36,842 nt of DNA from Nemertoderma westbladi (GCA_032718475.1 JAUCBJ010008897.1:1-36842), one strand, 5' to 3'; numbered from the stretch's first letter, positions 13,975 through 36,842 are shown. The notes: generated by a model not told the origin, from the sequence alone. Numbers and translations: made by a program.

Positions 13975-14726
13975 TGTACAATCCAATGATGTACATATTG
14001 TTTAAACATAAGCAAAATTTATTTCCCGGATAAATCACATTGAAAACTCGATTATTTACTTTCTTGGAACATTACTGCATTATAATATTAAAAACTCTCA
14101 GCTTATTTAAATCCTTCCAATTCGTTCCGTTCGATTCGGTTCTCTACAAATACAAACAAATACAAATTTATTTACATATTAAACTTCCAATAAAACCAGT
14201 ATATATATATAGGGCTATTTAAGTACTTAGGACATCATTAATACTATAGGCATTAAAATATGGTGGGAGCGGTAGACCGATGCACAATACATAAATATAT
14301 ATATCACTTGCCCAATACCGTAAGTACAGTGTAACCCTAGAAATAAGCAATATAAATTGACTCACCGATATGTGCTCTCTTCCGGGTAAATAATATCATA
14401 TACAATCAATCAAAATATCAAATCATACTGCAACAGTGCAGACAATAATTTATAATAATACGAGTAGCAAACACTGCAACAGTGCAGTCAATTAATAATA
14501 AGGCAAAAATAATAATTACTGATGCCACATACCGTTCACCGGCAGACCGGTACAGCACTACAACGTCCAGCCAAACAACAACCGGTACTTAAACATACTG
14601 ACACTCTCAGTGAATGTTACAGCTTACTGCATACCGGTACTGGCATTCACTGAAGCAAAGCGGATTCAACAATCTGTTCTATGTAACCTTTTACCGGTAA
14701 CTGGGGATTGCACACTGGCGCTTACA
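13975..14726 (-). repeat. 5' LTR of the BEL/Pao element
   Basis: On the minus strand it starts TGTAAG and ends TGTACA, and it duplicates 6717-7468. Confidence 0.95.
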
Positions 14727-14857: not shown

Positions 14858-15600
14858 CTAAAAACTACCAAAGATATCAATTAAACTGTTGAATTTAAGA
14901 TAAGCAGTTGTGAAGTAGTAGTAACTTAGTAGCACAAGGACTATGTATGGGTTTATAATCTCTGCTAACTTTTTAAAGAGGCCAATGTGGTCGATTTCGT
15001 CAAATGCCGATTCTATATCTAACTGGCACAGGTAAAGAGGAAACCCGTTCTTTCTATAATGTTCCATACATTCCAGGATTAAGCTGATGGCAAGATCTGT
15101 ACCTATTCCCTTTTTGAAGCCTAGCTGGTGAGTATGAGTAAGAGCCCCCTGGTCCTTGAAATGTAATTGAAGGATGCAACCTTCAAATATTTTAGCCAGT
15201 GAATAAACTGTGGCTATCGGTCTGTATGAGTTTCCTTTGAGGCGACTCTTACTTTTGCCCTTGTATAGGTGGGTAGCGACTGTATCACCAAAGCATTTAG
15301 GAACTGCACCAAGGCGGATACTGGCATTGAATATAAGGGAAATTGCTGTGCAGGTTGTCCCAGGGTTCGTGTGAAGGAAATGTTCGACAGTTATCGATTG
15401 AAATCAGGGGACTTACCTTTGTTTAATTGTGCTATGACTTTGCGTATTGTGACTGGCGAAATGTTTGGGGATTCTTTGCCTTTGCACCGAAGCAGAAGTG
15501 ACTCTCTTAGGATATTTATATCATCACACTCTTTTGTGTTGGCTTTGTCTGAAATTTTGTCACGGATTAGGAGTTCTGCGGTTGCAGAACTCTTGCAGGT
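14858..15600 (-). pseudogene. Decayed LINE reverse transcriptase fragment (N-terminal half of RT)
   Basis: Motifs LNKGKSPD, YKGK..NSYRPI..LAKIFE, HQLGFKKG and LDIESAFDEIDH..LF are present. There is a stop or frameshift near 15391, and the fragment ends before the QG and YADD motifs. Confidence 0.85.
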
Positions 15601-15603
15601 TGG

Positions 15604-16212
15604 ATTATCGCTCCTCCTGGTCGAGCTGATCAAATAAAGACTTCAATTCGGGATAATTACCTCGAAAGACGCCCTCTCCATTCCCCGTGCTATGGGACTC
15701 CCGGACTCAGGACCACCCGGATTTTATCTTGCTCAGTCAACATTGTGTAATCGTAATGAAACCCGAGGATCCCGCCTGCAGCATGGATTTTCTATCTCTG
15801 ATTAATCCCTTCGACACTACCGCAATCGAGCCCCTGCAGAAGCATCTCGACCATATAATAAATTCAAATACCTTTCGACTCGACCCAAAGGGACGACGAA
15901 ACATCCCTTCTGAAATATATCAGATTGTGGGATTATTCCGCAGTTTTACATCGGATTGCGCGATTACGTTATGTAAAGTTGTTGCGCCATTCTGTTCCCA
16001 CATCAATCGTGGATAGCAAACCTCAACCGGGAATATCTACAGGTGGACCAACCGTACGAACTGTCGCACCCCTTTCTGACTCATTGGAACTTCATCCTTC
16101 CACCGCTGAGGGGCTACGAGTGCAAGGTTCTCCGCCTCCGCTACCTGGTAATGGCTTCCCGCCACCGAAACGTTGCAGTCGACCCCCCAAAAGGAAAAGG
16201 ACCCGGAAATAA
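15604..16212 (+). pseudogene. Diverged, internally deleted paralog of the 21854-26107 exonuclease/zinc-knuckle ORF
   Basis: PPGRADQIKTSIRDNYLERRPLHSPCYG / QDHPDFILLSQH..KPEDP..FLSLINPFD..LQKHLD..NTFR aligns with PPDNRADLVRRMVHDVNIRARPLQNSFYGIKDHPYYVNLTQY..KPEDP..FLPLINPLD..LQKHLD..NSFR. QPGISTGG..SDSLELHPS plus a basic tail aligns with QPSTSTGG..SDAIILHPS plus a basic tail. Confidence 0.85.
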
Positions 16213-16467: not shown

Positions 16468-19088
16468 CTGAATATGTATGTTGTACGTAACTTAAGTTTT
16501 ATATTATTAATTGATATATCTGCATACTAGACATCTTTTTGTGTATGATTTGATCTCATACCTTCGTTTTTACCATTGCATTAGCTAAATGAATAGAATC
16601 TGTGTTAATGAAAGTTTGTTCTTGGCTATTTTAGATTACTTATTTTGCTAAATTTAAGTTCAAAACACCATTTTTATTGATAAAGTTGGTTGCGTCATAA
16701 TATCGATATCTTTTACTTAATTTTATGCATTACTAAAAGTTTGACGCCATCTAGTGCCATTATCTGCATATCCAACTTGTCTTAGTGCCTCATTGGTTGT
16801 ATGCTCCTTCCTGTTAAGCCTGTATATAAGCACGATTGGTTCTATGGCTTATTCACTTCTTCTTTGTTATTGTTTGACAGTGAAGTCACATCGGCCATGC
16901 AGAGGGAAAATCTCCGGTCAGGTTTTAATGACTGGTGATTATTACAAGTGTGAAGTCTGTAAAGTCTAAAATTATATTGTCTAAAGTATTAATAATTGAA
17001 TTATAATTATTTATCGTTATATTTGATATTCTACTGGTAAACTCAATTTGTCATTATTATTTCCTTAATATATCGCCGATATTACGAAATCAAGGAAGTT
17101 TTACACGCGCCACAACCAGGTAGCGAGCTAAGCTCTAAGCGCTATAGCTAAGCATTAGTGATAACCTGGACAATTGCATCAGATATACGTGTGCCGTCTT
17201 ACCTTTAACTTAATAAATAATTAATATATGGCGATATTTCAGACCATCATTGCAAGCAGAGCTCGTATTATTAATTACATCACGATTGAGAGTTGTCACA
17301 AATTGAATACTGTAACTGTAGCGATATCAATATAATTAGATAGAGACTTGTCGCAATACGTTTCCCCTAAAGGGAAACACCGTCACCAGACTTGAGCCAT
17401 ACATGATTAATTTGTCAGACATTTGCTTGTTGTATTGTGTTGCCACACCCTCCCGGTACTGTATACCAGGGAAATATAATAGATGATCAAATACCGTATT
17501 AGACTGACCGAAACATTGAGCAAATCAAGACATTGTGGGAGAAAGGAAAGAGTCAAAATATATGAAAAATTGAGATTAAAAACGTATTTTTTGTCAAATG
17601 CGCTAACAAAAATTATAGATTTATAAATTACATGCAAAATTAATTGGGCTATAAATAAATAAATTTATAAATATATTTTTTGGAAAACATTACTTATTTA
17701 ACTAAATATAGAATAATAACTGGAACACAATTCAATTAAATCACATCAACTCAACAGAATATACAAATAAATATTAAAAAGTAATGAATAGGGTTAGCTC
17801 ACAATAATGATGCTTCAATAATTATTAGCTGAACATCTGACTTGGTTTCCTGTCACCGTTCCATATCTGTGTTACATATGAATGTAAGTATAGGAACGAA
17901 CCCCCTGTGTATCCAATACAGAACCCCGAGGTTTACTGACCTAGTCTGTAACCAATCCACTGGTCGCTGTAATTAATGCTACATATATCCTTTATAAGGA
18001 TATAAATAGCTGAACTTGTGTTTTTGGGAGCAGAATGGAGTGCGATTGTCCAAACAGAGTTGATAGTTTAGTAACACGGACGGACGTACAATGACATAGG
18101 GTTGTCGGGTAACTTTAGGGAAACCACAACCAGCCACAGTGGGACCGAGATAATTAGAATAGATTAGATAAACATATAAAATTATAGTAGTTCTGAATGG
18201 GAACCAACTCCGTTACACTCATTGTAAACCAACGTTTTATTGGTTAAAGAACCGATTGGTTAATAATATAACCAATGGGAACCTCTGAGTTATAATTAAA
18301 ACTTTATATTAGTGGATGGACCAGGTTTGTGTCTACCAAAGGGACGTAGCAGATACACAGGTATTACTCGAATACACAATAAAGATAATATGGGAATAAA
18401 ATCGAACAAAAACTAATTAAAATGAAAATCAATTGAGGGAAATTTATATCATTTATGTATTTATATCTGATATAAATTAATTATTTTAGATATAATTTTA
18501 GCGAAAATTGCGAGCTCTCCCTATGGAAAATAATTAAATCATTATTATTATTTATAATATAAATAAAGTTATAAAATTCCCATAATATAAATAATTACAT
18601 AAACCTATTTATAATACTGGCCCTCAACATCAATACTATTAAATATTTTCGGTAACTGAATATAATATTCTGTAAGATACGGGATTGAACTGGTTGTTAT
18701 TCAATCAATTGATCTGATCTTCTTTTGAATACTTAGGAGAGTTTGAGTTTAGAACATCGGAACTACTGTCTGTCTGTAGGGTTGGATTACTTTATTGGGA
18801 TGTTATTTGTTAATTTGTTGATTTGTTATAATTAAGTTTCTCTTCTCTGATATTCCAATATTATATATATAATAATCTGCTTCTGTTTTCTTATAATCCA
18901 AATGGCATCTTGTTTGGTTTGAGATTATTCTGTAAATATAGAAATTAAATAGGTCCATAAAATTTGCATATTATTGAAACTTTTTTTTATGTTACATTTC
19001 TTTATATAATATTTAATTTATTTCGAATATGCACCAAACAATACCCACAACCAACAGACAACATGTATTAATTGACCAAGTAGAAAAG

Positions 19089-19150
19089 GGCGGGAAATTA
19101 AAAACTATCCGTATGATAGGCCCTAGTGATATAAGGCGGGAAATTTAAAA
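19089..19150. promoter_or_regulatory. Two E2F-like sites, GGCGGGAAATT(T)AAA
   Basis: GGCGGGAAA (TTTCCCGCC) at 19089 and 19135, each followed by a CHR-like TT(T)AAA. Motif match only. Confidence 0.35.
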
Positions 19151-20133
19151 CGATTTCAACATTGAAACTAATTCAATGCAACTAAATAGTACAGTAATAT
19201 TTTTAAGAAGCATTTCTAACATTCTAAAAGGATAAATTTCTTCCTGACTGAAAACCAAAATTAGTTCTAGAGGCCGTTGTGACTCAATGTATCTCACCTT
19301 ATTATATCGAAGATTCAACTCCTTAAATAAATCGGATTGTTGGTCTAGTTGGAATATAAGATATGTTGCCGAAATCTCAATGTTAAATAATAATCTGTCC
19401 GAGTTGAACTGAAGTTGTTGATTTAGAAGTCAAGAGTTGATACTTGTCTGGAAAATAGCAAAACGGAAATGATTTCGTATAAAAATTGATTAGCTTATCT
19501 AATAATTAATTTGTTAACAAATTCATTTATTTAATTTTTCACTCACCAAAATGTAAAATAATCGTAATTTTTATCTTAAGTATTTCTCTAAGTTCTAAAC
19601 AGAGACAATATTAGTGAATAATGGTTCTGGGGTTGGTTTTTCAACTCAATGTAACTCACCGACGACATATCGAAGCTTGTCTTAATGGATCTTTCGGAGA
19701 TTTTGAGCTAATTTCATTGAGTTGTAGATTTGGAAACCTTCTAGATAATTGTCTGAAATATAACAAAAATGAAATATTATGATTTCATAACTTTAATTAG
19801 CTCATCTAACAGCTTAACAAACTCTGTGTAACAAATTAATAAACACTTGTCTGTTGTTGTTATTTAATAGCAAAAACCAATACCGGTACCATTATAGAGG
19901 TAGGACAAGTAACTAAGTCATTGTATATGTTATGCCCGACTGCTATACTTACTTTAGTATTTATTTAGTTAGTGGCGACCAACTGGGTTCCTTCATTGAA
20001 TTCACAAGTTGTGTTTCTTTTTGCGGCAGACTTAATCTATAAATAAATTAAGGATAATAAATGTCTAAATGGCAGTCAACGGAAAATTAAATCATTAGCT
20101 AAACATCAGCTGGAGAAAACAAACTAACAAACT

Positions 20134-20565
20134 CCGAGCTCTATGGTACTATACCATCTGTATCAACCACCCTCCGTGAACGCCGAGCTCTATGGTACTA
20201 TACCACCTGTATCAACCACCTTCCATGAACGCCGAGCTCTATGGTACTATACCATCTGTATCAACCACCCTCCGTGAACGCCGAGCTCTATGGTACTATA
20301 CCACCTGTATCAACCACCCTCCGTGAACGCCGAGCTCTATGGTACTATACCATCTGTATCAACCACCCTCCGTGAACGCCGAGCTCTATGGTACTATACC
20401 ACCTGTATCAACCACCCTCCGTGAACGCCGAGCTCTATGGTACTATACCATCTGTATCAACCACCTTCCGTGAACGCCGAGCTCTATGGTACTATACCAT
20501 CTGTATCAACCACCCTCCGTGAACGCCGAGCTCAATGGTACTATACCATCTGTATCAACCACCCT
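20134..20565. repeat. 49-bp tandem repeat, about 8.8 near-identical copies
   Basis: The unit ccgagctctatggtactataccaYctgtatcaaccaccctccgtgaacg starts at 20134, 20183, 20232 and so on to 20526. Confidence 0.97.
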
Positions 20566-21853
20566 GTACGCGCTTTTGAAGACCTTTAGCAGTTTAACCT
20601 GCCAAAATTTATATGTCTTTTGGTTTATAAATAGACTTTAGAAGATGACAAATATTTAATACCAATAAACACAACATTAGCAGAAGCCAGCCTAGTGCGC
20701 GTCCATTCACCCGCTGGATATACCCGGGAGACTGGATTCTGAGGGCTTAGATTATTATTGCAGTGTAAGCTTACTGTATTGTATTATTCGATTGATCGTT
20801 AATAAATAATTTCTGACTAATATTATTCACTTTCGGGAAATATTAACAGTTCCTTTAGGACGTGGCGCTCTATCTAGGTAAACAGAGATATGACTTATAC
20901 TAATCACAACGGTAAGTCGGTAAGGCTTATGATTCACGTATGAGGCGCATTCTTTAGGAAATGCTTAGTTATCAGTCACAATCATGCACACTACCGGTAA
21001 CACACAATACTGCTCACTAATTTGCCGACCGTCAATGAATTTTATCATATATAAAGCGAACAGCAACTGACTCATGTAGGGCTTATCAAATAGCATTAAA
21101 TTCACTACAAACCACAATAATATAAGTCGCAATCGCTATATATAACCCGTCTCTCTAACCTGTAGTGTATCAAGAAAATTGGGAAATTTGGGTTCTTTAT
21201 ATATGTTCTCCAAATAATATTCAACCAAAACACAACAGTAAACAGCATTAAGACGGTGTGACAAGATAACAGTTATACGCTCTATAATCTTAAGCCTACT
21301 AATGTTTCTTCTAAAGTCTGAAACGAATTGACTCTAGAGCCGGTGTTCCTGGCCTAGATAGCAACAACACAACAGTATCACAAAAAACAGTAAGACTGAA
21401 CACTCCTAGTATCATCGGCCGAATATCTACACGTCGACAGAAAAAATCGCTCTGATTGGCTCAAACCAAACAAAGAACCGTGCGTCCAATGGCTGTTTCC
21501 ATGCCAGCAACCAGCTGCTAGATGTCGCAATCTGAATCATCAAGGCCAAGCCGTGTAAAGGTATTTGGTGCATTGCGGGTTTTTTGCCTTACCATGTCCG
21601 CCAAAGCAGGTATATAGACGAATGACTTTTATGTCCGTTAAAACACCTGTAACAGTACCTTGCGGGCGAGGGGAATATATATACAGTTAGAGAACCTTTT
21701 AGAGTATTCCAGCGCCTGGGGGGAAACTGGATTGCGAAGCAAAGGGGCCAGTTATATCCCACAGAAGCTTTTACACCGCTCCCAGAAAATGGGATTTGAG
21801 TCTATAAAATATACAAAATCACAGTTTCTAATATACATAAATACTCTAAACAG

Positions 21854-24115
21854 TTAGTCTTTCTTGCGTGGACGGCGTTTACGCAGTTTTTTAAAGCTAG
21901 CCAGAGTCCTTTTCTCTTTGGGGCGAGCCACTTTACAAGGAGGGCTATAACTCCTGGGTGAAGGGTGCAATATGATTGCATCAGAGGGTGTAGGATTATG
22001 GTCGGTGTATCCGCCAGTCGAAGTACTGGGTTGATTGACATCAACGTCAGATGAGAGGGGTCTAACGGCTTTGAGAGCTCGTTTCAAGACAGCCGCTCTT
22101 ACGGGTCCTTTACGAGTGGTCTGAACGAGGGCCGTGGGTGGACCATAGGCAGTTAGAAACCTCCGGGGTTTAATGGTCCTTTCCAACTCGCGTTCGCGGG
22201 CTCGGTATTCGTAAGGCCGTCGATATACTTCCTGTAACTCAGGGTGTGAGTTAACAAACAAGTCTCCATAGTCCGGATCCTGACGGATATAATTGATTAA
22301 GTTATAGGAATGAAGGTCGCTAGGATTAACACTCCTGAGAAATTTGCGTACGAATTTGGTTGAAATACATTCTCCGACGCGCTTCAGTAGCTCGTAACTT
22401 GATATGCGTGATTTCTGTTCAACCGAAGCGAATAGATAAGGATGGAACGCATAAACTCCTTCGTAAGCGCGTCCGGGATAATAGCGATGGCGCGAATCAC
22501 AATGTAAATCAGCGTTCGCTTCCCAAGCTCTGATGTAACGTAGTGTGATCATTTCATCTACGCTTTCCAAATCGTGATTAAAAGGGCAATCGAAACTGGC
22601 ATGTCCCTTTAGTTGACAATGGTGACATTGAGTCATAAATTGAGGGCAAACCGCAAAGATATGCAAGTTATTGAGTCTGCAATATGCGCAATAAATTTCC
22701 ATAGTCGGTTGTTCTTGGAAATAGGAACAGCGGACGTTGGTGTCCATGGGCGTATCGTGGTCTCTCGATGCGCATAACCGACAACGTTGCCTAGAAACAT
22801 AGTTGGCATGTCGATAATCGTACGCAGTGAGACACTGTGGACCTTGATACCATTCTATGATGTAATCGTTGTCGCTGGTCTGGGGCGCGATAGGCTGAAT
22901 CTCTTCAGATTCTAGACATATTGGTTCGTCTTCCAAGTGCATAGCTGAAGTGGGCGCGTCTGTCTCTTCAGGTGGACCTATTGTCTGAATTTCCACGACA
23001 GAATAACCTGTGGGGATTCGAGGTCTTTGTATAACAGAGGAGTGCAAGTTCGATATACAAATCTCTTGGAAAACGGCGAATCCAGCGCTATCCAACTTCT
23101 CTGCAGCTGAGTCTCTTAGGCTGAGCTTGGTCAAAGCGCGGTCTTTAAATTGGCTATCCACGTTGCGGAACGGGGTTAAAAATCGCCGGAAACATTCGAA
23201 ACGGATGAATTTATTATGTTCATCTAGCTTAGCGAGTTTGGTCCCAAGTATTAATGGATGGGCGCGTATAGTACGACTGCACACATCGGCTAGCCAACCG
23301 GCAAGTGCGGTGTTTTCAAAGATCGTGTATATAGCTAAGGAGGGACGGAGTGGAACACTCATGAAGCTATACACGGCGCCAGGTGCGGTTAATGGTCCAT
23401 CAAAGTACAATCGAGAATAATGATCTCCGTATACTTGTTGATAGTTAATGGGATTTCCGACTTTGAAATTCCATCCGTATTCCTGAAAGGCAAGATGTCC
23501 GATGGAAGTTCGTTGCACCTTTGTAATGTTGCTAGGCGTATTAGCATACATAGTGCGGAAGAAACCTCGACCTTCTGCCCAGGGAGCAATCAGCTGAGTA
23601 TCAACGAAAGGGTATGGAATGTTCTCCATATTCCGAAAGTCGTTTTGGAGATCTCCATAAACAGCTGAGCCGATTTTAAGGATTCTTTCGTTGAACAACA
23701 TCTCGAGTATGGGCTGGGGTAACATCGATCCATCGATGCCCATGGCCGGTTTGCGTTCGGTGTCAATGACGTAACGCTGCGCGAGTTCGAATTGTCCATG
23801 TCGGAGATTCTTTTGTGTTTCGGTGAGAGTTTCAAAAGAATAATCAATCATTTCGGAACACGCTCGAGTAAACACGTGGGTAGAACCAGCTAATCCGCGT
23901 ATATGGATCATGCGCGTAGTTCCTAGTTCTCCGACCGGAACGCTACCTTCATTATCGTAGGTGACAACTCCATACATCTCAATAACATTAAGAGTTTCAT
24001 TCCACTCCTTGGTGGCGTTCTCTAGGGTCATCCCTATTGGATGCCACAAGGTGGCGCATTGGTTAGCGTCAGGGAGATCACTATACTTCATGTGCCGAGT
24101 GGTATACGTCTCCAC
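21854..24115 (-). CDS. C-terminal part of an unknown protein: DEDDy 3'-5' exonuclease-like domain, three CCHC zinc knuckles and a basic NLS-like tail (frame open up to 24247)
   Basis: ExoI-like VVTYDNEG, ExoII-like LPQPILEMLFNERILKIGSAVYGDL, then FVDTQ, SIGHLAFQEYG and ExoIII-like PLRPSLAIYTIFE. Knuckles: CRLC-x4-H-x9-C, CAYC-x5-H-x4-C, CHHC-x4-H-x4-C. C-terminus KKLRKRRPRKKD. Confidence 0.7.
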   Translation of the reverse strand: METYTTRHMKYSDLPDANQCATLWHPIGMTLENATKEWNETLNVIEMYGVVTYDNEGSVPVGELGTTRMIHIRGLAGSTHVFTRACSEMIDYSFETLTETQKNLRHGQFELAQRYVIDTERKPAMGIDGSMLPQPILEMLFNERILKIGSAVYGDLQNDFRNMENIPYPFVDTQLIAPWAEGRGFFRTMYANTPSNITKVQRTSIGHLAFQEYGWNFKVGNPINYQQVYGDHYSRLYFDGPLTAPGAVYSFMSVPLRPSLAIYTIFENTALAGWLADVCSRTIRAHPLILGTKLAKLDEHNKFIRFECFRRFLTPFRNVDSQFKDRALTKLSLRDSAAEKLDSAGFAVFQEICISNLHSSVIQRPRIPTGYSVVEIQTIGPPEETDAPTSAMHLEDEPICLESEEIQPIAPQTSDNDYIIEWYQGPQCLTAYDYRHANYVSRQRCRLCASRDHDTPMDTNVRCSYFQEQPTMEIYCAYCRLNNLHIFAVCPQFMTQCHHCQLKGHASFDCPFNHDLESVDEMITLRYIRAWEANADLHCDSRHRYYPGRAYEGVYAFHPYLFASVEQKSRISSYELLKRVGECISTKFVRKFLRSVNPSDLHSYNLINYIRQDPDYGDLFVNSHPELQEVYRRPYEYRARERELERTIKPRRFLTAYGPPTALVQTTRKGPVRAAVLKRALKAVRPLSSDVDVNQPSTSTGGYTDHNPTPSDAIILHPSPRSYSPPCKVARPKEKRTLASFKKLRKRRPRKKD

Positions 24116-24247
24116 ATTTCCATATCTTTGTATTTTCTCTTCTTCAAATAATACATCTAGATTCCAATGGACTAATCGAGTTTTAATAAATCCATCGAGA
24201 TTATAAGGAGGTTCTATATCTTTCTCGATTCGAGAAATGTTATACGG

Positions 24248-26107
24248 TTATCTAAATGAGTTTACCTTTACTAACTGATCCAGATGTTTCTGCAATTGTT
24301 CGAGTTCGACAATGTCTAGAGGATTTATTAGTGGTAGAAACTTTAAATTATGTGTCGGGTCTTCTGGTTTTACCATATAATATTGAGTCAGATTAACGTA
24401 ATAAGGGTGGTCTTTAATCCCATAAAACGAGTTCTGTAAAGGTCTAGCGCGTATGTTGACATCGTGTACCATACGACGGACAAGATCCGCTCGATTGTCC
24501 GGAGGTTCAACGAGTATACCGTCAACACGAGCGGCCTCGATCGGCGGACGCTGTAACATAGGGGCGTCAGCGATAAGATTTTGCGATCCTGTACTGATAT
24601 CAACCGGTTGAGGTTGTATCGTCGCGAAGAGCTTGTCCCCGAAATGTGGAATCATCGAGGGATGACGAACGGTTTTAGAGTAGAGGTCCGTCATGAGGAT
24701 TTGAGCTTCCGGTTGGGCTAAAGCGGCTTCTTCTCTCTCTTCCAGTTTCGTGTGTTTCTCCTCGAGTAGAATTTCTTCCGCTTGTCTCTGTAAGCGTTCA
24801 TCTAAAAATTCTTGTAGAGAATACGTGCGTCCAAGCTCTATGTCTTCCTCGAGGTTTTGGATTTCCCTATCGAACTGTGGCAAGGCTAACTCCTTCACCG
24901 ATTGGACTTGTTGTTGTAATTTACGTTTCTCTAAACAATCTTGTGTTCCCTTTCCGATTTTCTGTCGAATGGCGTCTAAAGCGTTTCTTATAACGCTCTC
25001 CTCGACTTCCGTGGCGGGTTGCATCGGGTTTAATCCTGGACGATTGTAAGGATCAAAGGGCGATATTAGCTGCCCGCGTCCCAATCCGGCTAAGTAGGAT
25101 GGGCGGATGTCTAACGAACCCACTACCGGAGCACCACTGATTAATTGTTCGGGTAACACTAAGTCTTTGAACAGGGAATATAGTTCGGGAGGATCAGTGA
25201 TACTGTTAGGATCAAGAGTTTGAGGTCTCACTAGGGAATGAGGAGGCCTGACCGAGTATTCCGGAACTCTGATCATGGGTTTATTCAGTGATCGTTTAAG
25301 ACGAGCGATCGTGGGTGGTATGTCGAACAGGTTTCGCTCGAAACTCCCGTAAGTGTAACGCGTAAAACTATGTTTAGCGCAACGTCTCCGCGGATGTTTG
25401 TGTCTTTCCGTTTGTTGGTTGGGTCTAGGGCATTCGTCACAATAATACCAAAGACGTACGTCCTGTAGAGGAAACGCGGGTGAACGTTCTCCAGTTTTGC
25501 AATATTCTTCCATTTGTTCAAAACTATCCGGGATAACAGGTAGTGGACGATCGGCGGTAAGATACATCATAGTGAAATAGAGCCGTTTGAGTTCTACCAC
25601 AGGGTCGTGATGTATACCTTGAGGATATCGAGTCTCTAAGTTCTGCTGACTAGCGATGTTGAGATAGGTTTCTCTCAAAAATTCTAGGTATTCGTTGAAG
25701 TCGATGCGTTTATCCGGTTCTTCAACGTTTTCTCTTTCCAGTCTATTACGAATAGAATTTTCGTGATCTATTCTCGGTTTATCGTTACGACTCCGCTGGG
25801 TATGATATTTAAATAGAACCATTTCCCTCTCTGTATCTACATCGTCCGTATCATGTAAATCGATAGGATGGCCGGTCGTTAAGAAGTCCATATACGTACC
25901 ATTACGATTCGTATAGCGAGTGGTGAATTTTCGATAGTCCAATTCACGCGCAAGTTGCTCTTGGGACATCGGCGGTTCGATATAACGACCATCGTCCTCC
26001 GTAATGGTTGGATCGGCTTCACCGCGTATTAAGCTATCCACAAATGCTTGTAAAGGTAGAGTATATCGCTCCCTAATACCAAGATCATCTTCTATCAACT
26101 CCGTCAT
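24248..26107 (-). CDS. N-terminal part (619 aa) of the same unknown protein; one putative Cys/His finger and a Glu/Gln-rich coiled-coil-like segment
   Basis: A long ATG-initiated intronless ORF containing CDEC-x9-HKH-x4-C. It is in frame with 21854-24115 across one TAA and 44 stop-free codons. Its C-terminal end is conserved in the paralog at 15604-15880. Confidence 0.7.
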   Translation of the reverse strand: MTELIEDDLGIRERYTLPLQAFVDSLIRGEADPTITEDDGRYIEPPMSQEQLARELDYRKFTTRYTNRNGTYMDFLTTGHPIDLHDTDDVDTEREMVLFKYHTQRSRNDKPRIDHENSIRNRLERENVEEPDKRIDFNEYLEFLRETYLNIASQQNLETRYPQGIHHDPVVELKRLYFTMMYLTADRPLPVIPDSFEQMEEYCKTGERSPAFPLQDVRLWYYCDECPRPNQQTERHKHPRRRCAKHSFTRYTYGSFERNLFDIPPTIARLKRSLNKPMIRVPEYSVRPPHSLVRPQTLDPNSITDPPELYSLFKDLVLPEQLISGAPVVGSLDIRPSYLAGLGRGQLISPFDPYNRPGLNPMQPATEVEESVIRNALDAIRQKIGKGTQDCLEKRKLQQQVQSVKELALPQFDREIQNLEEDIELGRTYSLQEFLDERLQRQAEEILLEEKHTKLEEREEAALAQPEAQILMTDLYSKTVRHPSMIPHFGDKLFATIQPQPVDISTGSQNLIADAPMLQRPPIEAARVDGILVEPPDNRADLVRRMVHDVNIRARPLQNSFYGIKDHPYYVNLTQYYMVKPEDPTHNLKFLPLINPLDIVELEQLQKHLDQLVKVNSFR

Positions 26108-26919
26108 ATCTGCTATCTGAGTTTATTAATATCAAATAAGTTTATATTTAGGCGAGCGGGCGTCGCTGCCTACTTCTCTTTGCCCCCGGACAGTGGGATT
26201 CTCAGCGCCGATGTACCGTCGTCGCGGTGTTTACGCCAACATGTAGCAACAGCACGACAACGATAACCGGCACAAGTCACTCCACTGTCCGTCCCAAAGG
26301 CTTGGATCCACTTAGGTTCTTTCTATAGGAGAGTTGGGCTACTTTTACAATTGCGACTAGCTACTGTAAACATACTTTAGCAGTAACATTCACCTATAAA
26401 CGCACAAATTCCACACAACTGTCACCAACTGCACACATACAGGCCATTTGTCCGTTAGTCAGTGCCTTCCAGAATGTCACGTTATTACTGTGTATCCTTG
26501 GATACTAGCAGTGTGCTATATTCTCTATGCTATGCAATGGGACAAGCTTTCTATTGTTCTTTTAACTTGCTTCTAATTCTAGCGTGGGTGTTGCTATGGT
26601 GACATTATGGAATGCTAGCGGTAGAATTAGGGTAATTCTCATGCATACAGATCTGGGATGCTATTTAATAATAATTCTTTAATTGTCAATATCCTCTTTA
26701 TGCATGATTTTATTAATTTTATCGGCTATTGACTATATGTTGGAGATTCTCGCACTCTAATACACTCAATAGGATGAATCTCCGCTCCCATGATCTATTA
26801 ATTAATGGAATTTTGGGAATGTTATAAATTGTACAAAATGACAATTTATGAAATTCATTTAAAATATGAATTTAAATTTATTCCTGTGAATTTTATTATT
26901 TGATGTTAAAATTGACACA

Positions 26920-27212
26920 ATTTGATTCCAGAGCAGGTCTGGGGACATAGGATCCTTAATTCTATGAAATTTGTCTTTTAAGAGTATCGGTAAGTGCTAC
27001 GATATCTTAATCGACTAGAATTGTTAACGGATCTGAATTTTACAGATTTTACTAAATATTAAATTAATTTTAAGATGGGCACCGATTTATTCCAGAACTT
27101 GTCTGGGGACGTTAACCACTGATTCTAGAATTTGTCTTTCAAGTATATCGGTGGGTGCCGCGATATCTTAATCGACTAGAATTACAGATGGTCAAAAAGT
27201 TTAACAGATTTA
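26920..27212. repeat. Diverged direct duplication with a period of about 160 bp in the pol-to-ORF spacer
   Basis: attccaga..gtctggggac..atttgtcttt..tatcggt..gtgc..cgatatcttaatcgactagaatt..acagattt occurs twice. Confidence 0.8.
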
Positions 27213-27726
27213 TTTGCGTTTTACGCTACTGTTAGAGGGACATCACGCTACTATATGTATTATTTAATATAAGGTAGAAGAGCAATATCGCACGAAGCAA
27301 TGTCAGTGTGAAGAGGCAAGTCGTTTCCAAGGTCTACCCAGAGCTTGGTTTAGCCGAGACACGAGGATCTGAACTTTGCATTCCTAATACTCTGCCTACT
27401 AATAATACTTGAATATAGTAGTGGCTTTATTGTACTTTAATAAGTACGGACATTTCATCTTACTGTAGTCACGTATTTATAATATGATACGGACAGTAAG
27501 GAAAGAGAAAAAATTATTTCTCGCCGTCGCACTAAATATATTATAAGTGATTACGTACGTAATAAACACTAATATATTGCACTAATCTACTAAATAATCA
27601 CTAAAATAACATTCTACTAAATAAAATTGAATAAAAACGATTATAATAAAGTACATAATAAAGTTCGCATATAAAAATATAATAAAATAGATAAAACAAT
27701 ATAGTCATACACCCACTCCAGACGTA

Positions 27727-30198
27727 TCACGTTGGGGAGTCCCTAGATGTTTGAGGAATTAGGGAGGTGGTCGTGGGAAGAGTGTCTTGCCTTCCATAGT
27801 TTCCAGAGAGTTCTCTGTCTCTTTCCAGTAAACATAAACGACCAACTGGGCGATTGAGTTGTTGCGTCTCAAAGATTATGCCTGGCTTCTTGAAGTTACG
27901 CCGCATGACGACAAGTTCTACTGAGCGCACTAAACCATCATCCGAGATGTGAGTCTCGATGATACGACCTGTCTGCCACCGTTTACGTAGGAGGTCTGGA
28001 TCTACAATAAGCACCATATCTCCGGCGCTGACGTTTTCTTGCTGCGCAAACCACTTAGTTCGAAGTTGTAGCGTGGGCAGATAATGTTTCTCGAAATGGT
28101 CAGCGAAACGACGGGATAGCAACTGCATAAGTTGCCAAGTTCGACGGCAGTATTCGTCTCCGTCGGCAATCTCCGATCTTGGGAGCATGGCTACAGGTTT
28201 CTTCAGTAGGAAGTGCGCGGGTGTTAGCGCTTCCAGGGAATCGGGACTCGATGAGACTGGCATAAGCGGTCTCTCGTTGAGATAGGCAGCGATTTCCTCC
28301 ATTAATGTCCGCAAAAGTTCGTCGGTGAGATACGCGCGGCATGGCACTATAAAGTGAAATGCGGTTTTGACACTTCGAATTAATCTCTCCCAACTTCCTC
28401 CCCACCAAGGGGCGTCGGCGGCGTTGAAGGTCCAGCTAGACGCTGTTATCCTTAGTTGGTCGTCCACCTGTCTTTGGTTCCAGTCCTTCACGTAAGCCTG
28501 TATTTCGTTGTTGGCACCAATGAAGTTCGTTCCCTTATCCGATCTCATGGTATTACTCGTCCCGAAGCGAGCGATCTGTCGTCGTAAACTTAAGACGAAG
28601 CTGTTGGTAGATAGATCGTTCACCATATCGAGATGGATGGCTCTACAAGTCATGCACACGAAGATGACACACCATCTCTTGACTATAGTCCTAGCACGAT
28701 ATACTTCAATAGGGCCAAATAAATCTACACCAGTATTAGTAAAAGGTGGTTCATAGAAGCTTACTCGTTCCCTAGGTAATTCTGCCTCTCGCTGTGTTAA
28801 AGGCCTACTGAATGCTTTCCTACAGGGTATGCAGTTCCTAAGAACTTGGTTCAGAGCTCTACGGGGTTTATAAAAATAATAGCGAGTTCGGATTTCGCTA
28901 AGAACTCGTTCTCTACCAGCATGATAAAGTTTGCTGTGAACATCTACAATCATCTTGATTTGTACTTCAAGATTTCTAATGAGTATGGGGAATTTAGTGT
29001 CAAAGGATAATGGCGCATTGGTGAGTCTTCCTCCAACACGTATTAACCCATCTATCATTGTGCTCGAGAATCGATCCCTTAAGCGCATCTGCGGATTTCT
29101 CAACAACAGGAAATACTTTTCGGAATCCTCATAGCATTGCAGGAGTCTCAGTATCTGCTTATTGGTTTCTTCATGCTCCTGGTGACTAATTTTCTCCTTT
29201 AGAAAACGGTCAGATGTCTTATATTTGGGTAAATTTTTAATAACATGAACTTGTGCAGATGTCAATGGAGCGTTATCGCTAGTGGTCCTCGTCCTGGAGT
29301 AGTGATGATGAAAACATCGTCTTAAATATGTGACGGCTTTACAGAGCCGATTCCAGGAACTGTAATGATGCATTGCTCTCTGCAGCATGGGTGAGATTCC
29401 TTGCGAGACGTCTGGTATTCCAGATTTCCAATCTCTATCTCTAATTTCCACAACAGACTTATTTGTGTTGAGGGATTGTGGATCCGAAGCATCATTCCCG
29501 GAAGTATGTAATACAGATAGATCGATAGTCGGTTTAAATAACTTCAATTTACTCGCCCGGGTTTTAGGTTTGACTGTCTCCGCTCCCTTGGCTTGTCTAA
29601 TCTCTGTCGTAGTAAGGTGAGGAGGCCATTCATCCTCTTCCTTGCTCAGGAAGTCGGGTCCACCCAACCAGTCAGGGGTATCTATCAGTTCCTGTGGAGT
29701 TGCTCCTCTGGAGGCGATGTCAGCTGGGTTAATCGTACCAGGGCAATGTCTCCATTGATCTATCGTTGTGCGACTAAGAATAATGGCCACTCTGTTAGTA
29801 ACAAAGATGCTGAACTGACAGACTTCATTCGTTATATATTCCAATACAAGTAAAGCGTCGGTCCAATAAACAGTTTTCTCCAGTGGATAATCGATCTGTT
29901 CTGTTACATTCCGGCCGATAGCTGTAGCGTATAAGGCTGCTTTTAACTCCGCCCGAGGAACCTTAAGCTTGTTGTTAATCAATGCCTTAGAGGTAACCAA
30001 GGCAACTTTGATTCCATCCGGAGTTTCGACTCGCAGGTATGCTACTATACCAATTCCCATATCGCTGGCATCTCCAAATACATGGAGTTGATAGGAATAC
30101 GTAGGGAGAACATGACCAAAATATGAACGAGAAATTATAAAGTTCTCGATGGCAGGTAGCGAGTCCTCCCATTTCATCCATTTCTTTAATAGTTCTCC
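27727..30198 (-). CDS. Second BEL/Pao pol, 5'-truncated: RT-RH connection, RNase H and integrase; RT core absent
   Basis: GELLKKWMKW connection motif, LHVFGDAS, PRAEL, YWTD, NPADIASRG, RVGGRL, HHCC, VDLFGP, SDKGTNF, GGSWERLI. Clearly diverged from the 7609-13665 element. Confidence 0.92.
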   Translation of the reverse strand, partial: GELLKKWMKWEDSLPAIENFIISRSYFGHVLPTYSYQLHVFGDASDMGIGIVAYLRVETPDGIKVALVTSKALINNKLKVPRAELKAALYATAIGRNVTEQIDYPLEKTVYWTDALLVLEYITNEVCQFSIFVTNRVAIILSRTTIDQWRHCPGTINPADIASRGATPQELIDTPDWLGGPDFLSKEEDEWPPHLTTTEIRQAKGAETVKPKTRASKLKLFKPTIDLSVLHTSGNDASDPQSLNTNKSVVEIRDRDWKSGIPDVSQGISPMLQRAMHHYSSWNRLCKAVTYLRRCFHHHYSRTRTTSDNAPLTSAQVHVIKNLPKYKTSDRFLKEKISHQEHEETNKQILRLLQCYEDSEKYFLLLRNPQMRLRDRFSSTMIDGLIRVGGRLTNAPLSFDTKFPILIRNLEVQIKMIVDVHSKLYHAGRERVLSEIRTRYYFYKPRRALNQVLRNCIPCRKAFSRPLTQREAELPRERVSFYEPPFTNTGVDLFGPIEVYRARTIVKRWCVIFVCMTCRAIHLDMVNDLSTNSFVLSLRRQIARFGTSNTMRSDKGTNFIGANNEIQAYVKDWNQRQVDDQLRITASSWTFNAADAPWWGGSWERLIRSVKTAFHFIVPCRAYLTDELLRTLMEEIAAYLNERPLMPVSSSPDSLEALTPAHFLLKKPVAMLPRSEIADGDEYCRRTWQLMQLLSRRFADHFEKHYLPTLQLRTKWFAQQENVSAGDMVLIVDPDLLRKRWQTGRIIETHISDDGLVRSVELVVMRRNFKKPGIIFETQQLNRPVGRLCLLERDRELSGNYGRQDTLPTTTSLIPQTSRDSPT

Positions 30199-30213
30199 CT
30201 AACACTCCCCCCC
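30199..30213 (-). other. Polypurine tract followed by a 6-nt LTR-start-like stub (GGGGGGGAG-TGTTAG)
   Basis: Has the classic PPT-TG junction shape and sits exactly where pol homology ends. Confidence 0.55.
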
Positions 30214-30678
30214 ATGCTATCTTCCCGGTGAGAAGATAGCATCCAACTCAAGTGCGCTACAATTCCGCTGGATCCCGATCTATTATCGGGTGTGGGGTGG
30301 GTCTATTTTTTTCGGAGTCGGCTTTCCAGGCCGCTCCCTATGGGTATGATGTCACTACCCTCTGGCGTCTCGTGTCGGGCCGATCGTGCGCTTCTCTCAC
30401 ACAATTTTTGTTTCCCCAACACTCTCACCACTCTAACTCCGCTTTCTGACTCAACTCGCTCTTACCCTCTCCCCACACCTGAATCGCACTCCTCTTTCTC
30501 GCCAACAGTTCCTCTCACTATCTCCTCTCTAATCTCTGCCACTCTCTAAGGCCCTGACCTCTAATGCTACCCCTGTGCTATCATACTATCTACCTACTAC
30601 TCACTTGCTAACTATCTAACTCTCTTACTAACTCTAACTATCTCTCTAAGCCTACTAACTTTAACTCTAACTCTTTTA

Positions 30679-31351
30679 CTACGTGGCGCTTAGGGTGCCC
30701 ACAACCCTCTGCTACTACCTCCATCTACGTGGCGCTTGCGGTGCCCACAACCACTCTACTACTAACTCTAACTAAAACCCTCTATCTACGTGGCGCTTGT
30801 GGTGCCCACAACCACTCTACTATCTACCCTCTACTACTCTACTACCTGGCACCCTATGTGCCCTCTCTACTACTCTACTCTCTGGCACCCTATGTGCCCT
30901 CTCTACTACCTCTAACACTCTAACTCTACTACCTGGCACCCTATGTGCCCTCTCTACTACTCTACTCTATCTACATCTCCACCTCAACTAATACCTCTAT
31001 CTACGTGGCGCTAACGGTGCCCACAACCACTCTACTACTACTTCTACTCTGCTACTATCTTTCTACGTGGCGCTTCCGGTGCCCACAACCACTCTCTGCT
31101 ACTACTTTCTACGTGGCGCTTGCGGTGCCCACAACCCCTCTCTGCTACTACTTTCTACGTGGCGCTTACGGTGCCCACAACCTCCCTACTACTACTCGTG
31201 GCATGACAATATGCCACACTCCCTTACCCCGCCGCCTTCTAACTTCTCTACTTACTATCCTTCTACGTGGCGCTTACGGTGCCCACAACCTCCCTACTAC
31301 TACTCGTGGCATGACAATATGCCACACTCCCTTACCCCGCCGCCTTCTAAC
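30679..31351. repeat. Array of 13 short palindromes separated by CTA-rich low-complexity spacers
   Basis: 8x GTGGCGC-N5-GTGCCCAC, 3x GGCAC-CCTAT-GTGCC and 2x GTGGCAT-GACAAT-ATGCCAC. The last two blocks form a 108-bp-period duplication. Confidence 0.92.
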
Positions 31352-31497
31352 TTACCCTCTACTAACTTATCTTCTGCTAACTATTATTATTTAATTATTT
31401 ATTATTATTTATTTTTATTTTTAATTAAATAATTAATTTCTTGTGGGAAGGGCGTCTCGCCCTCATTCCCACCCCCCTCAGTCCAAATATTGGACGA

Positions 31498-33171
31498 CTA
31501 AACTCTAAGCTGCCCCTCGATCTTCCATCGATTCTTCCATGAGGCACTGTCCCGATGTCCCCCTGCGCGTCCTCTTATCTTTCCACCCACTTTCCTCGCC
31601 AACTCCAACTCATCTGGAATTGGCTCTCCCCCTTTCACCACCCCAAAATCGGGTCTCTCCACCGCCTTCTTAACTATGTCCTCTCTTGGCATCAAAATGC
31701 CATCTCTTTCTTTGTTGTCTCCCGCCGGCAGAATGAATAGAAAGTGAAAGAACAGGCAGAACAGTAGTCCTATTCCTTTCCATCCTGCCTTCCTTCTCGA
31801 CTTCCCCCTTGTCGGTATGCCTCCAAACCGGACCGGCATCTCTTCCGGACACTCCTCTAGACACTCCTGCAGACACTCCTCTGGAGTGTTGTCCTCCGGA
31901 CACCTCGCCGTCCGCTCCGCTTCATCTCCATACCGATGCTTGCTGGGAAACCTACTCTCCTCTGCCCACTTTCTTACTGTCACCTCCCTATCTGGCTCTA
32001 CTATATCCTCCGGCTTCTTATCTTCGTCCTCTATGTCTGCGGTGCCTGGTAACATGCATCCTGATGTCTCTGTCACACTGCATGGTATCTTAGTTTTAAC
32101 TGGGCCGCTAAGCATCCACCCGAACGGCGTGAGGATCGCCGTCGGATCCCGCTGCCTGTCTTCGCCGAAGACCATCTTCGTTCTCTCGTGGGCCGTCGGG
32201 CAGTCCATCCCTACTATAATGGACACCTTCCTAAGGTCCACCTTTGGTATTGAGAAATCGATACCGTCCAGGAATCTATATTGTTCGACCTCAATGTTGG
32301 TTGGTCGCCTGGCATTGATGTTTATCGATTCTATGACGTGGATGGGGTCGATCGTCGCCCCATAGTCGTATCCCGGTGCAATCGCTGCTATCCTGCACCG
32401 CCCCGCCCTCGTCTCCAGGACCTCATCTTTACTCGAGACGGTAGTCACCGCCATTCTATTCGGCCTTGTCTTTAGCCCTATCTCTTCGGCCACCCAGTTC
32501 TCCACCAGCGTGAAGGCTGCTCCGCTGTCGACCAGCATTAATGTCGTTACTGATCGACCGCCCTCTCCTGATATCTTTACTGGTACTACCCCGAGTAGTA
32601 CTTTTCTCTTCTTCTCCTCTTCTGTCGTGCTTGTGGCCATTGCCTGGCCTCCAGTCTCGGACTCTCTAACTGCTGTCTCTCTACACTCTCCGGATCTGTG
32701 TCCTTCTACCACACATCGATGACATAGTCCGTTCGCGTCTGTGTAGGCTATACGATCTTGTTTGGGCAATGCTTGCCAGTGCTTACAACTCCTGGTCTTA
32801 TGTGTTCCATCCCGATGTAATTGACATTCGAATCCTGGATCATAGCGTTCCCTGTATAGTCCCTCACGTATCGCGCCTAGGTTTATATGTACCGATTTAG
32901 TGTTTTGGTTGTCTGTATTCGGCCTACTGGGCACATTGGGATTATGTTTATTTATGGTGTTATTTTCTTTCTGTCCCCGCCACGGTGTGGCCCTGCTACC
33001 AGCTAACTGTGGACTAGCAGTCCCCTGTGTGGCCGCATGTGGTAGTGATTGTCCTACTCTCGGGAGTGGATCTGCAGGATCGTGTTCGGGTTTATGGCTT
33101 GTCCCCAAACTATCCTCGCTATAGACTGGGTCTGTTATTAATTCGGCTTCATAGTTGAGGAAGCTCGACAT
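31498..33171 (-). CDS. BEL/Pao-derived ORF (557 aa): two Gag zinc knuckles and an aspartic protease; no capsid region, no RT; novel C-terminal tail
   Basis: CQLH..H..C and CHRC-x4-H-x4-C, VLLGVVPV, MLVDSGA, IIVGMD and PTAILTPFGWMLSGP are present, followed by unrelated sequence containing a hydrophobic stretch. Confidence 0.85.
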   Translation of the reverse strand: MSSFLNYEAELITDPVYSEDSLGTSHKPEHDPADPLPRVGQSLPHAATQGTASPQLAGSRATPWRGQKENNTINKHNPNVPSRPNTDNQNTKSVHINLGAIREGLYRERYDPGFECQLHRDGTHKTRSCKHWQALPKQDRIAYTDANGLCHRCVVEGHRSGECRETAVRESETGGQAMATSTTEEEKKRKVLLGVVPVKISGEGGRSVTTLMLVDSGAAFTLVENWVAEEIGLKTRPNRMAVTTVSSKDEVLETRAGRCRIAAIAPGYDYGATIDPIHVIESININARRPTNIEVEQYRFLDGIDFSIPKVDLRKVSIIVGMDCPTAHERTKMVFGEDRQRDPTAILTPFGWMLSGPVKTKIPCSVTETSGCMLPGTADIEDEDKKPEDIVEPDREVTVRKWAEESRFPSKHRYGDEAERTARCPEDNTPEECLQECLEECPEEMPVRFGGIPTRGKSRRKAGWKGIGLLFCLFFHFLFILPAGDNKERDGILMPREDIVKKAVERPDFGVVKGGEPIPDELELARKVGGKIRGRAGGHRDSASWKNRWKIEGQLRV

Positions 33172-33257
33172 TTCTTCTAGGCCCGGTTCCGCACCTTTCT
33201 TCTCACGTGTGGAGAAAGCGATTTTATACGCGTCCCCGCCGTGTGGATGAAAAGAGT

Positions 33258-33744
33258 TGTTGTTCTGACGTTGTTGTTAAGGATATAAATTGAGATAACA
33301 TATAGTGTATAGGTACAATAGCAGATAGCACTGAATACTGCTGCACTGGTACCGGTAATGTGATGACGGCGGTGACGGTCCTAACTGTCACCGTACTACC
33401 TGACTGTACTGACCGACTGAGATAACTGACTGAATAGGGGAGCACCAACAGGTAATATACTGCACGGTTGGCCATATTAGTGTACCTAGTCGATGCTGTC
33501 ACCCCATTGGCTAATATCCCTGTTGGCACCCTTTGCCCCCCTCTGAAGTGCTTCCCTTCGCCCTTGCTGTTCTCTCTTGGTTAGGGGTTTGGCCCCTGAC
33601 CCTTATTGTGTGTGTCTCCTTTGGGGCCTGTTGTCCCCGTTTACTGGGGTGACACGAGGTTGATTGGTAATCAACCTCGTGCTCCCAATATTGCTTAATG
33701 GCTCACTCTATGGGTTTGTGTTAGCGGAATTGGATAAGCTAACA
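33258..33744 (-). repeat. Candidate unpaired 5' LTR of the gag-protease element
   Basis: The minus strand begins TGTTAG (same as the stub after the PPT at 30204), contains CCAAT and a TTCAGTCAGTT initiator-like motif, and ends ...AACAACA upstream of the ORF. No twin copy exists in the window, and the 3' boundary is uncertain (33521 is an alternative). Confidence 0.4.
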
Positions 33745-36838: not shown

Positions 36839-36842
36839 ATCA

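Follow-up and report, generated by a model that had tools for sequence, protein, structure and literature searches.

What would a retroelement gain from a DEDDy-type exonuclease encoded in its env slot? The role of such third open reading frames (ORF3s) has been an open question since their description in rotifers (PMC5408684). The same question is raised by a reading frame of Nemertoderma westbladi, here also called ORF3, at positions 21854..26107 of a 36,842-nucleotide stretch of DNA (GCA_032718475.1 JAUCBJ010008897.1:1-36842) that is referred to as the window. Features lie on the minus strand unless indicated otherwise.

Reading frame of ORF3

The initial annotation described ORF3 as an intronless open reading frame of about 1417 codons. 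Translation of 26107-21854 showed that this accessory frame is real; in 1000 base-shuffles of the region, the longest open run was 212 codons and each shuffle contained at least 54 stops. The frame is not open in the window, where one in-frame stop at codon 620 (24248..24250) cuts it into 619 and 797 codons. According to the contig variant table, this stop is private to the window copy. Nearly all contigs covering the site differ from the window in the four runs (37, 9, 5, and 6 contigs), and the share of depth that differs is 100%, 99.9%, 100%, and 100%, respectively. These findings indicate that the gene of the family is one long ORF and that the window copy is broken.

A BEL RNase H-integrase ORF, encoded on the strand of ORF3, has its stop (27727) 1.6 kb upstream of it, in agreement with the first placement of ORF3. 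A CpG-rich likeness to pol had also been claimed; the G+C content is indeed equal (0.453 in ORF3 and 0.454 in pol, with 0.30-0.39 in the flanks), but the observed/expected ratio of CpG is not (1.28 and 0.94, with 0.8-1.06 in the flanks). The codon usage of both ORF3 halves correlates best with that of the RNase H-integrase ORF (0.49 and 0.55).

Predicted exonuclease domain

A DEDDy-type 3'-5' exonuclease domain is predicted at 23270..23975 from motifs and profile homology. Motif scanning places ExoI at D718 (23954-23956) and E720 (23948-23950) and ExoII at D819 (23651-23653), with F-V-D836 after it, and ExoIII is assigned to Y927 (23327-23329) and E931 (23315-23317) as Y-x3-E; the motifs stand where the initial annotation had put them. 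A distant homologue, P0001, is a 648-aa protein from one ENA contig of 9.4 kb, with about 30% identity to ORF3, and it retains D-x-E, D, and Y-x3-E. Like ORF3, it joins an exonuclease with a Y-x3-E-N-T ExoIII to a low-complexity linker, three CCHC knuckles, and a basic tail; unlike ORF3, the called protein is devoid of a long N-terminal region.

When the entire ORF3 protein is scanned with the ExoI profile, D718/E720 ranks first by a thin margin (3.2 bits, the next site 3.1), and it aligns ungapped with P0001 at a score of 15, compared with -1 for the site chosen by MAFFT and HH-align. That alternative placement of ExoI, on a different strand of the protein at aa 755, lacks D-x-E and scores lower, and it was rejected. 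D819 of ExoII is invariant in all 70 rows of alignment A3. The assignment of ExoIII is based on the pairwise match to P0001, as profile scanning for this motif gave negative scores only, for both the ORF3 protein and P0001. Glu replaces Asp at ExoIII, as had been noted for ORF3, and P0001 has the same residue, which suggests a family trait and not decay of the window copy. The balance leans slightly towards an intact metal site with Glu as its fourth residue.

The DEDDy assignment was borne out by HH-align, a match of the ORF3 protein to NCBIfam RNase D (E 0.0026), and the overlap of a two-row exonuclease profile with PF01612. Against 51 DEDDy domains that were selected independently of the query, HH-align gave a probability of 91.8%, while none of 30 column shuffles exceeded 1.5%; the score was 9.1 bits, and the maximum among 1000 protein shuffles was 5.6. 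The probability was 94.6% against a 73-domain profile, 22 domains of which had been picked by the query's own profile. The two-row profile matched in 39 of 201 bacterial genomes, and by hand count 19 of its 22 matches overlap listed PF01612 matches in genomes searched with both. This statistical homology spans the ExoII region only. Pfam PF01612 itself did not match the window protein and reached no better than E 0.2 with P0001. The top three Atlas clusters are all PF01612 (best 0.88), which serves as a lead only; in the first of them, a euglenozoan cluster of PF01612 with zf-CCHC, knuckles accompany PF01612 in 61% of members. The best DEDDy signals of ORF3 do not single out the WRN/MUT-7/EXD branch named in the initial annotation; they are divided among RNase D, EXD1-like, and CCHC-bearing clusters. 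With regard to the expected RNase H-like fold, a single-sequence structure model reached pLDDT 33, so a fold search from it is meaningless. Seeding raised the pLDDT of the model to 52, with a best Z of 3.7 over 94 aligned residues at rmsd 4.5, but this seeded model is circular and weak and is not counted as evidence.

When 1.84 billion representatives were searched unfiltered, one match came up. In a word-indexed protein search restricted to near lengths, neither the 753-aa part nor the two-row exonuclease alignment found a relative, and P0001 matched itself only. No relatives were found in viral, metagenome, or prokaryote contigs, no PHROG matched under E 0.05, and the PDB sequences gave no exonuclease match. 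Phages and plasmids gave one chance-level match each, the phage ORF being without evident exonuclease motifs. The window itself contains a diverged, internally deleted relative at 15598..16212 on the plus strand (tblastn E 2e-13, 47% identity), which covers ORF3 aa 530-619, ~1184-1209, and 1338-1401, with the exonuclease and knuckles absent; the scores of its pieces were reached by none of 200 shuffles.

Zinc knuckles and flanking regions of the protein

The N-terminal 619 aa (24251..26107) contain a Cys/His cluster at aa 223-246 and an acidic stretch at about aa 400-500, by motif and charge scan, and have no match in Pfam, NCBIfam, PHROG, or Atlas. Motif scanning and profile matches locate the three expected CCHC knuckle-like motifs at 22586..22783, but only knuckle 3 has the canonical CX2CX4HX4C spacing, which is altered in knuckle 1 (CX2CX4HX9C) and knuckle 2 (CX2CX5HX4C). 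The match to Pfam zf-CCHC_3 (E 0.0093) is below the cut-off, and profile A1 gave nucleocapsid matches at E 0.0016. The translation ends in a basic tail (21857..21925), as first described. No TM-like stretch was found in ORF3, the best 19-residue Kyte-Doolittle mean being 1.18, which supports the earlier view that it does not look like env.

These features would also suit a pseudo-nuclease that binds RNA 3' ends or stem-loops with its knuckles and acts as an adaptor for localizing, packaging, or shielding element RNA, like EXD1 or Egalitarian. We regard this as possible but unlikely. The Glu at ExoIII in both proteins points in this direction, as does the similarity of the ORF3 knuckles to retroviral nucleocapsid. 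Egalitarian keeps all DEDDy residues, yet they are dispensable for binding RNA and for its function in vivo (10.1101/2025.08.03.668247). EXD1 is an inactive RNA adaptor, but it has lost most of its acidic residues (SDLN, AELE; PMC4712191), whereas ORF3 and P0001 retain four plus the Tyr despite their low identity.

Probable host element of ORF3

The pol ORF upstream of ORF3 (27727..30198) encodes a BEL/Pao RNase H-integrase with Pfam matches to Peptidase_A17 (E 7e-18), DUF5641 (E 2e-19), and Integrase_H2C2, and it shares 31% identity with the polyprotein of the intact BEL element in the same window. It is cut upstream at about 30200, where the break is visible as a 24-contig loose end; in contigs, other copies of pol run on beyond this point. 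Neither an RT nor a 5' LTR for this piece was found in the window, and there is no RT remnant upstream of 30200. Downstream, ORF3 is followed by a PPT-like motif (21776..21783) and TGTA at 21775, the pattern seen in the intact BEL element. A putative 3' LTR then occupies 20650..21775, as a single copy in the window with an approximate far end; it contains CCAAT at 21459, a TATA-like motif at 21203, a GT splice donor at 21159-21158, and ATTAAA at 20660. The intact BEL element has identical LTRs, was recently inserted, and carries no exonuclease gene.

Repeat finding and local alignment detected no LTR pair for the ORF3 element in the window. What the two non-coding flanks share at best is a 63-nt AT-rich stretch, whose score was reached by 1 of 200 shuffles and which is not an LTR pair. 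No Rfam families were found in 17000-36842. The suggestion that ORF3 fills the env position of a BEL element stands for its repeat-borne nature and probable ORF3 position; for a place between paired LTRs together with this pol, the unbroken coverage of the repeat and the splice joint described below speak indirectly. ORF3 probably belongs to the BEL unit. The absence of the RT and 5' LTR here, together with another LTR-like segment directly behind pol, keeps this link at the level of likely.

That segment lies in the spacer that separates pol from ORF3 (26325..27726, defined by contig coverage), which is non-coding and high-copy. Its 27719-27301 part is LTR-like, with a purine run (27719-27712, the second PPT candidate besides 21783-21776), TG at 27711, TATAAA at 27481, AATAAA at 27431, and CA at 27301, and adjoins the pol stop, where an ordinary BEL 3' LTR begins. 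ORF3 may accordingly come from another LTR element or from an ORF-plus-LTR unit that stands alone; the BEL piece would then end with its own LTR (27711-27301) and be a separate insertion or fused relic. A diverged copy in run X4 retains the purine run and TG (loose end 27731), each of the four runs shows a summed depth over the spacer of about two times the pol value (depth not being copy number), and no BEL pol precedes the deleted relative at 15598-16212 on the strand of that relative. All of this favors a separate origin, which is nevertheless judged unlikely. Depth does not change stepwise at 27301, and among those listed, the spacer contains neither a loose end nor a joint to unrelated sequence; the three spacer loose ends listed (best 24 of 2107) read as variants of the window's own sequence. 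Variants and indels lie on both sides of 27301 in 21-85 contigs of run X1, and ORF3 and pol have G+C and codon usage in common.

Putative splicing and signs of selection in the repeat family

The region 20700-30600 is a high-copy repeat, with 30 of 30 bins covered in all four runs from four studies. No single molecule spanning pol and ORF3 was seen among the contigs, which are short. The ORF3 ATG is preceded by a splice acceptor with a pyrimidine tract (AG 26324-26323) and a 215-nt leader (26108..26324), which contains one 3-codon uORF (ATG 26242). One contig of run X5, whose DNA or RNA status is a guess, ties 21160 to ~26322, at the GT and the AG, with 19 diverged letters at the joint. The donor ranks in the top 5 of 80 GT sites and the acceptor in the top 4 of 101 AG sites. 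An env-type spliced RNA would be expected to have such a junction, and the LTR and this joint, as read from the contig sequence, are assigned with good confidence.

Among the best 40 of 2662 differences, 14 of 21 in ORF3 are synonymous (0.30 expected, P 6e-4), as are 7 of 11 in pol (0.30 expected, P 0.02). None of the 12 indels listed (best 12 of 181) falls within ORF3 or pol. The excess of synonymous differences in both genes gives signs of purifying selection.

Proposed function

An even chance is given to the overall explanation that ORF3 is a third BEL/Pao gene in a high-copy repeat and encodes a knuckle-guided 3'-5' RNA trimmer that aids the survival of element RNA. Its message would be made as a spliced subgenomic RNA from the donor in the putative LTR, the zinc knuckles would guide the predicted exonuclease to RNA, and 3'-5' trimming may help element RNA to survive host RNA surveillance. 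It is tentatively favored that the enzyme acts in trans on the 3' ends of cytoplasmic RNA, either host small RNAs or element RNA tails, over a role in the particle, since ORF3 appears to be expressed apart from Gag-Pol and is without a membrane anchor. Should host small RNA prove to be its target, the ORF3 product would be an element-encoded counter-defence enzyme. It is rather improbable, in its full form, that ORF3 is a BEL/Pao counter-silencing nuclease that is made from a spliced message, has a D-E-D-E-y active site and nucleocapsid-like knuckles, and trims host piRNAs or siRNAs, forms with P0001 an undescribed retroelement family of exonuclease-knuckle proteins, and helps to explain the very high copy number.

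An active enzyme may instead have its place within the particle, with nucleic acids of the element itself as substrates: it would trim the tRNA primer, the 3' end of genomic RNA, or mismatched cDNA ends. Among named profiles, RNase D, which processes the 3' ends of tRNA, comes closest, and Rodriguez et al. suggest that the RNA of the element is processed at its 3' end (PMC5408684). For the DEDDy domain of Dada transposases, a part in processing the ends of cut DNA has been suggested (PMC3706591). ORF3 is not fused to Gag or Pol, however, and the intact, recently inserted BEL element manages without such a gene, so this role is held to be fairly improbable. Passive capture of a host nuclease gene of no function for the element would fit the broken state of the window copy and the 15598 relative and the deletion derivatives that have lost the exonuclease (joint 22933-25738, abundant in one run), but it is hardly credible given the synonymous excess, the absence of listed indels from ORF3, the frame open in other copies, the lack of introns, and a splice acceptor tied to the LTR.

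Comparison with known systems

The rotifer elements Juno and Vesta belong to a Ty3/Gypsy-like clade. The rotifer elements that host DEDDy ORF3s are Ty3/Gypsy-like or Penelope-like, whereas ORF3 here likely has a BEL/Pao host. Cellular RNase D, EXD1, EXD2/WRN, Nibbler/MUT-7, and Egalitarian have the ExoI-II-III motif order of ORF3, with ~10-38% identity in the ExoII segment only (bacterial rows). ORF3 differs from them in its insertions after ExoI and before ExoIII, its Glu at ExoIII, and its repeat-borne, intronless state. Dada DNA transposons are also mobile elements encoding a DEDDy exonuclease, but their domain lies inside a DDE transposase and has all four DEDD residues (PMC3706591). Belpaoviridae with a third gene have a BEL-type RNase H-integrase, as here, and the third ORF before the PPT and LTR, as is likely here; that gene is env-like, in contrast to the nuclease/knuckle protein, and their range of 4.2-10 kb is exceeded by the full element implied here (PMC8742986; PMC3118150).

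Rodriguez et al. 2017 (PMC5408684) describe ORF3s that encode a DEDDy exonuclease and occupy the env slot in the bdelloid LTR retrotransposons Juno and Vesta, so the combination initially thought undescribed is new only in part; literature searches found no description of a BEL/Pao case with knuckles. The Juno/Vesta and Athena/Terminon ORF3s are, like ORF3, DEDDy/RNase D-like, downstream of pol, and without TM or signal features, and they share an altered acidic motif and activity that is predicted only. Compared by description only, the motif is DEED there (PMC5408684) and D-E-D-E here. Knuckles are not mentioned for those ORF3s in the text consulted, whereas ORF3 has 1417 codons, three knuckles, and a 619-aa N-terminus. 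The rotifer study further reports that ORF3s are typically expressed from spliced messages and that the DEDDy ORF3 elements are low-copy, with activity not shown and selection examined for other ORF3 types only (PMC5408684). The present case carries the arrangement to a likely BEL/Pao host and adds knuckles predicted to bind RNA. As its family is of very high copy number and shows signs of purifying selection and a splice junction of env type, it makes the role of DEDDy ORF3s testable.

Reading frame and domain architecture

The minus-strand frame 26107-21854 (ORF) begins 1.6 kb past the stop codon of pol (27727-30198, minus strand), an ORF that bears the signatures of a BEL/Pao RNase H-integrase. 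The large ORF of the initial annotation exists as a frame of 1417 codons, but in the window copy one in-frame stop at codon 620 divides it into a 619-codon and a 797-codon open part; the longest open run in 1000 shuffles was 212 codons. The exonuclease motifs named earlier are present at D718/E720, D819, D836 and Y927-x3-E931, and so is the basic tail. Three Cys/His knuckles were also found as described, but only one of them is canonical. The product lacks a hydrophobic anchor, in agreement with its reported non-env character. Its proposed compositional similarity to pol holds for G+C but not for CpG. A Cys/His cluster in the N-terminal half, C-x2-C ... H-x-H-x4-C-x2-H (25372-25441, minus strand), is a possible zinc site.

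Homology to DEDDy exonucleases

Assignment of the product to the DEDDy exonucleases is supported by profile-level homology. A Pfam search returned no exonuclease match, and the NCBIfam RNase D model matched the ExoII region (E 0.0026). The sole homologue among 1.84 billion representatives (E 1.5e-6) was P0001, an unnamed 648-aa singleton from one 9.4-kb contig, which shares the layout from the exonuclease through a linker and three knuckles to a basic tail. When 201 bacterial genomes were searched with a profile of these two exonuclease domains, 39 had matches at E up to 0.1; where PF01612 was also used as a query, 19 of 22 matches overlapped a listed PF01612 match. HH-align against 51 bacterial DEDDy domains, chosen without reference to the query, gave 91.8%, compared with at most 1.5% for 30 shuffled controls. 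The whole product scored 9.1 bits against the bacterial DEDDy profile, and 1000 shuffles reached at most 5.6. Each of the three best Atlas clusters was a PF01612 cluster, and the top one has CCHC knuckles as well (score 0.88, a lead only). Structure prediction did not help the assignment: pLDDT was 33 for the sequence alone and 52 when bacterial rows served as the seed, with a best Z of 3.7.

D819 (ExoII) was invariant in 70 of 70 alignment rows. For ExoI, 718-720 narrowly scores highest against the profile and is consistent with P0001; the alternative strand picked by automatic aligners was rejected for its lack of D-x-E and its lower score. ExoIII was placed by pairwise match to P0001, and both proteins carry Glu there. 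The architecture and homology of the product form the established part of this account.

Copies and selection

Six of the seven listed sequencing runs, from four studies, contain part of the stretch, and one of the runs may be the source of the window itself. Four runs (71,306, 19,457, 412 and 889 contigs) were compared over 20700-30600, and all 30 bins were covered in each; high copy number therefore applies to pol, the spacer (26325-27726), the ORF and the kilobase beyond it. At the internal stop, nearly every covering contig in these runs departs from the window, and the stop is thus private to the window copy. Differences from the window were taken from the best-supported 40 of 2662 rows, which is not a full dN/dS. 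Of these 40, 22 fall in the ORF; with the stop site omitted, 14 of 21 are synonymous, against an expected fraction of 0.30 (P 6e-4), and the ratio in pol is 7 of 11 (P 0.02). The ORF and pol, together 68% of the stretch, contain none of the best 12 of 181 indels. The ORF is a genuine accessory gene, under selection and carried by a repeat, that combines a DEDDy domain with knuckles and is broken in the window copy.

A 2804-bp deletion joint, 22933-25738, is present in X1, X4 and X5, with a depth of 2918 in X5; it removes the exonuclease, leaves the knuckle region and the two ends of the ORF in place, and is not a multiple of three in length. Deletions of ~1.7 kb affect the integrase region (27862-29577) in 4 of 4 runs. 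Together with a diverged, internally deleted ORF relative at 15598-16212, the deletion joints in several runs show an old family that sheds non-coding derivatives.

Putative LTR and spliced message

The segment from 21775 to about 20650, with a purine run, TGTA, CCAAT and a TATA-like box, is most simply read as an LTR. The box lies 40 nt ahead of a GT (21159-21158, minus strand) that fits 7 of 9 positions of the donor consensus and ranks in the top 5 of 80 GT sites. One X5 contig (depth 493), listed in a pool of 68 joints and 41 rows of a further table, joins 21160 to 26304 through 19 letters resembling a diverged 26322-26305. An AG at 26324-26323 (minus strand), preceded by a pyrimidine tract, is in the top 4 of 101 AG sites, and the chance of GT and AG together is ~0.3% per joint. 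In the simplest reading, the contig represents a spliced RNA, or a reverse-transcribed copy of one, for which a 5' LTR copy would supply the donor; the acceptor would lie 215 nt upstream of the start codon of the ORF.

Probable membership of the BEL/Pao element

The ORF is probably linked to the BEL element. Codon usage of both ORF halves is closest to pol. The spacer has no depth step at 27301 or elsewhere, and no joint or unrelated loose end, 27301 included, among the best 24 of 2107 loose ends. Against the link, no contig in four runs bridges pol and the ORF, and the summed depth of the spacer is ~2x that of pol. Also against it, the segment 27719-27301, at the expected starting place of a plain BEL LTR, has another purine run with TG, TATAAA, AATAAA and CA; this segment may be a relic LTR within a compound element. 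The likely identity of the ORF is the ORF3 of a BEL/Pao family.

At 30200 other copies continue with sequence unlike that of the window (24 contigs in X1), so the window copy is truncated there; no RT remnant was found upstream in the window. The adjoining 30200-33276 (minus strand) holds a gag-protease fragment (33276-31498), purine-rich tandem repeats (units 46/92/108 bp) and a G-run plus TGTT that abuts the truncated RNase H-integrase. The gag-protease piece differs in codon usage from every other window ORF and may derive from another element. A near-perfect 68-bp palindrome (33766-33833) lies upstream of it.

Other elements in the window

An intact, recently inserted BEL/Pao element occupies 6717-14726 (minus strand), with a single 2024-codon frame (7609-13683), identical 752-bp LTRs, a 5-bp target-site duplication and no third ORF; the bases past its 5' LTR do not begin with the usual TGG. 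A LINE endonuclease-RT frame of 890 codons lies at 34166-36838 (plus strand), and LINE-like fragments were seen by inspection at 14858-15403 (minus strand) and 4765-5416 (plus strand). The region 20130-20632 contains nine copies of a 49-bp unit and an adjoining 68-bp piece with 78% identity to the LINE ORF 3' end (36776-36840). A 68-bp tandem repeat array occurs at 6229-6528, and an inverted, diverged copy of its unit lies near the window start (516-593). One host gene, of the cation-efflux (SLC30/ZnT-like) type, is represented by an exon at 744-1076 (minus strand; Pfam E 1.4e-11).

Possible function

Conservation of four acidic residues and the Tyr at 30% identity suggests that the metal site is maintained. 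The knuckles are similar to those of nucleocapsid and would bind RNA. The predicted enzyme may act in trans on RNA 3' ends, which would help the element against RNA surveillance; separate expression and the absence of a membrane anchor favour action in trans. A serious rival, by analogy, is that the product could be an adaptor like EXD1 and Egalitarian, the models for this role in the accessible parts of PMC4712191 and bioRxiv 10.1101/2025.08.03.668247. A role inside the particle is also a serious rival to action in trans.

Comparison with known systems

Env-like genes are carried by the BEL elements roo, Tas and Cer7. BEL/Pao elements have one to three genes, the third being env-like (PMC8742986; PMC3118150, accessible part). 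DEDDy domains are also contained in Dada transposases, according to the accessible part of PMC3706591. The combination was initially considered undescribed, and this stands for a BEL/Pao exonuclease ORF3 or an ORF3 with knuckles, neither of which was found in literature covering few subscription papers. It does not extend to DEDDy ORF3s in general: in the accessible part of PMC5408684, the rotifer Juno and Vesta elements and Terminons carry them, with the motif DEED and activity unshown, and ORF3 is typically expressed from a spliced message.
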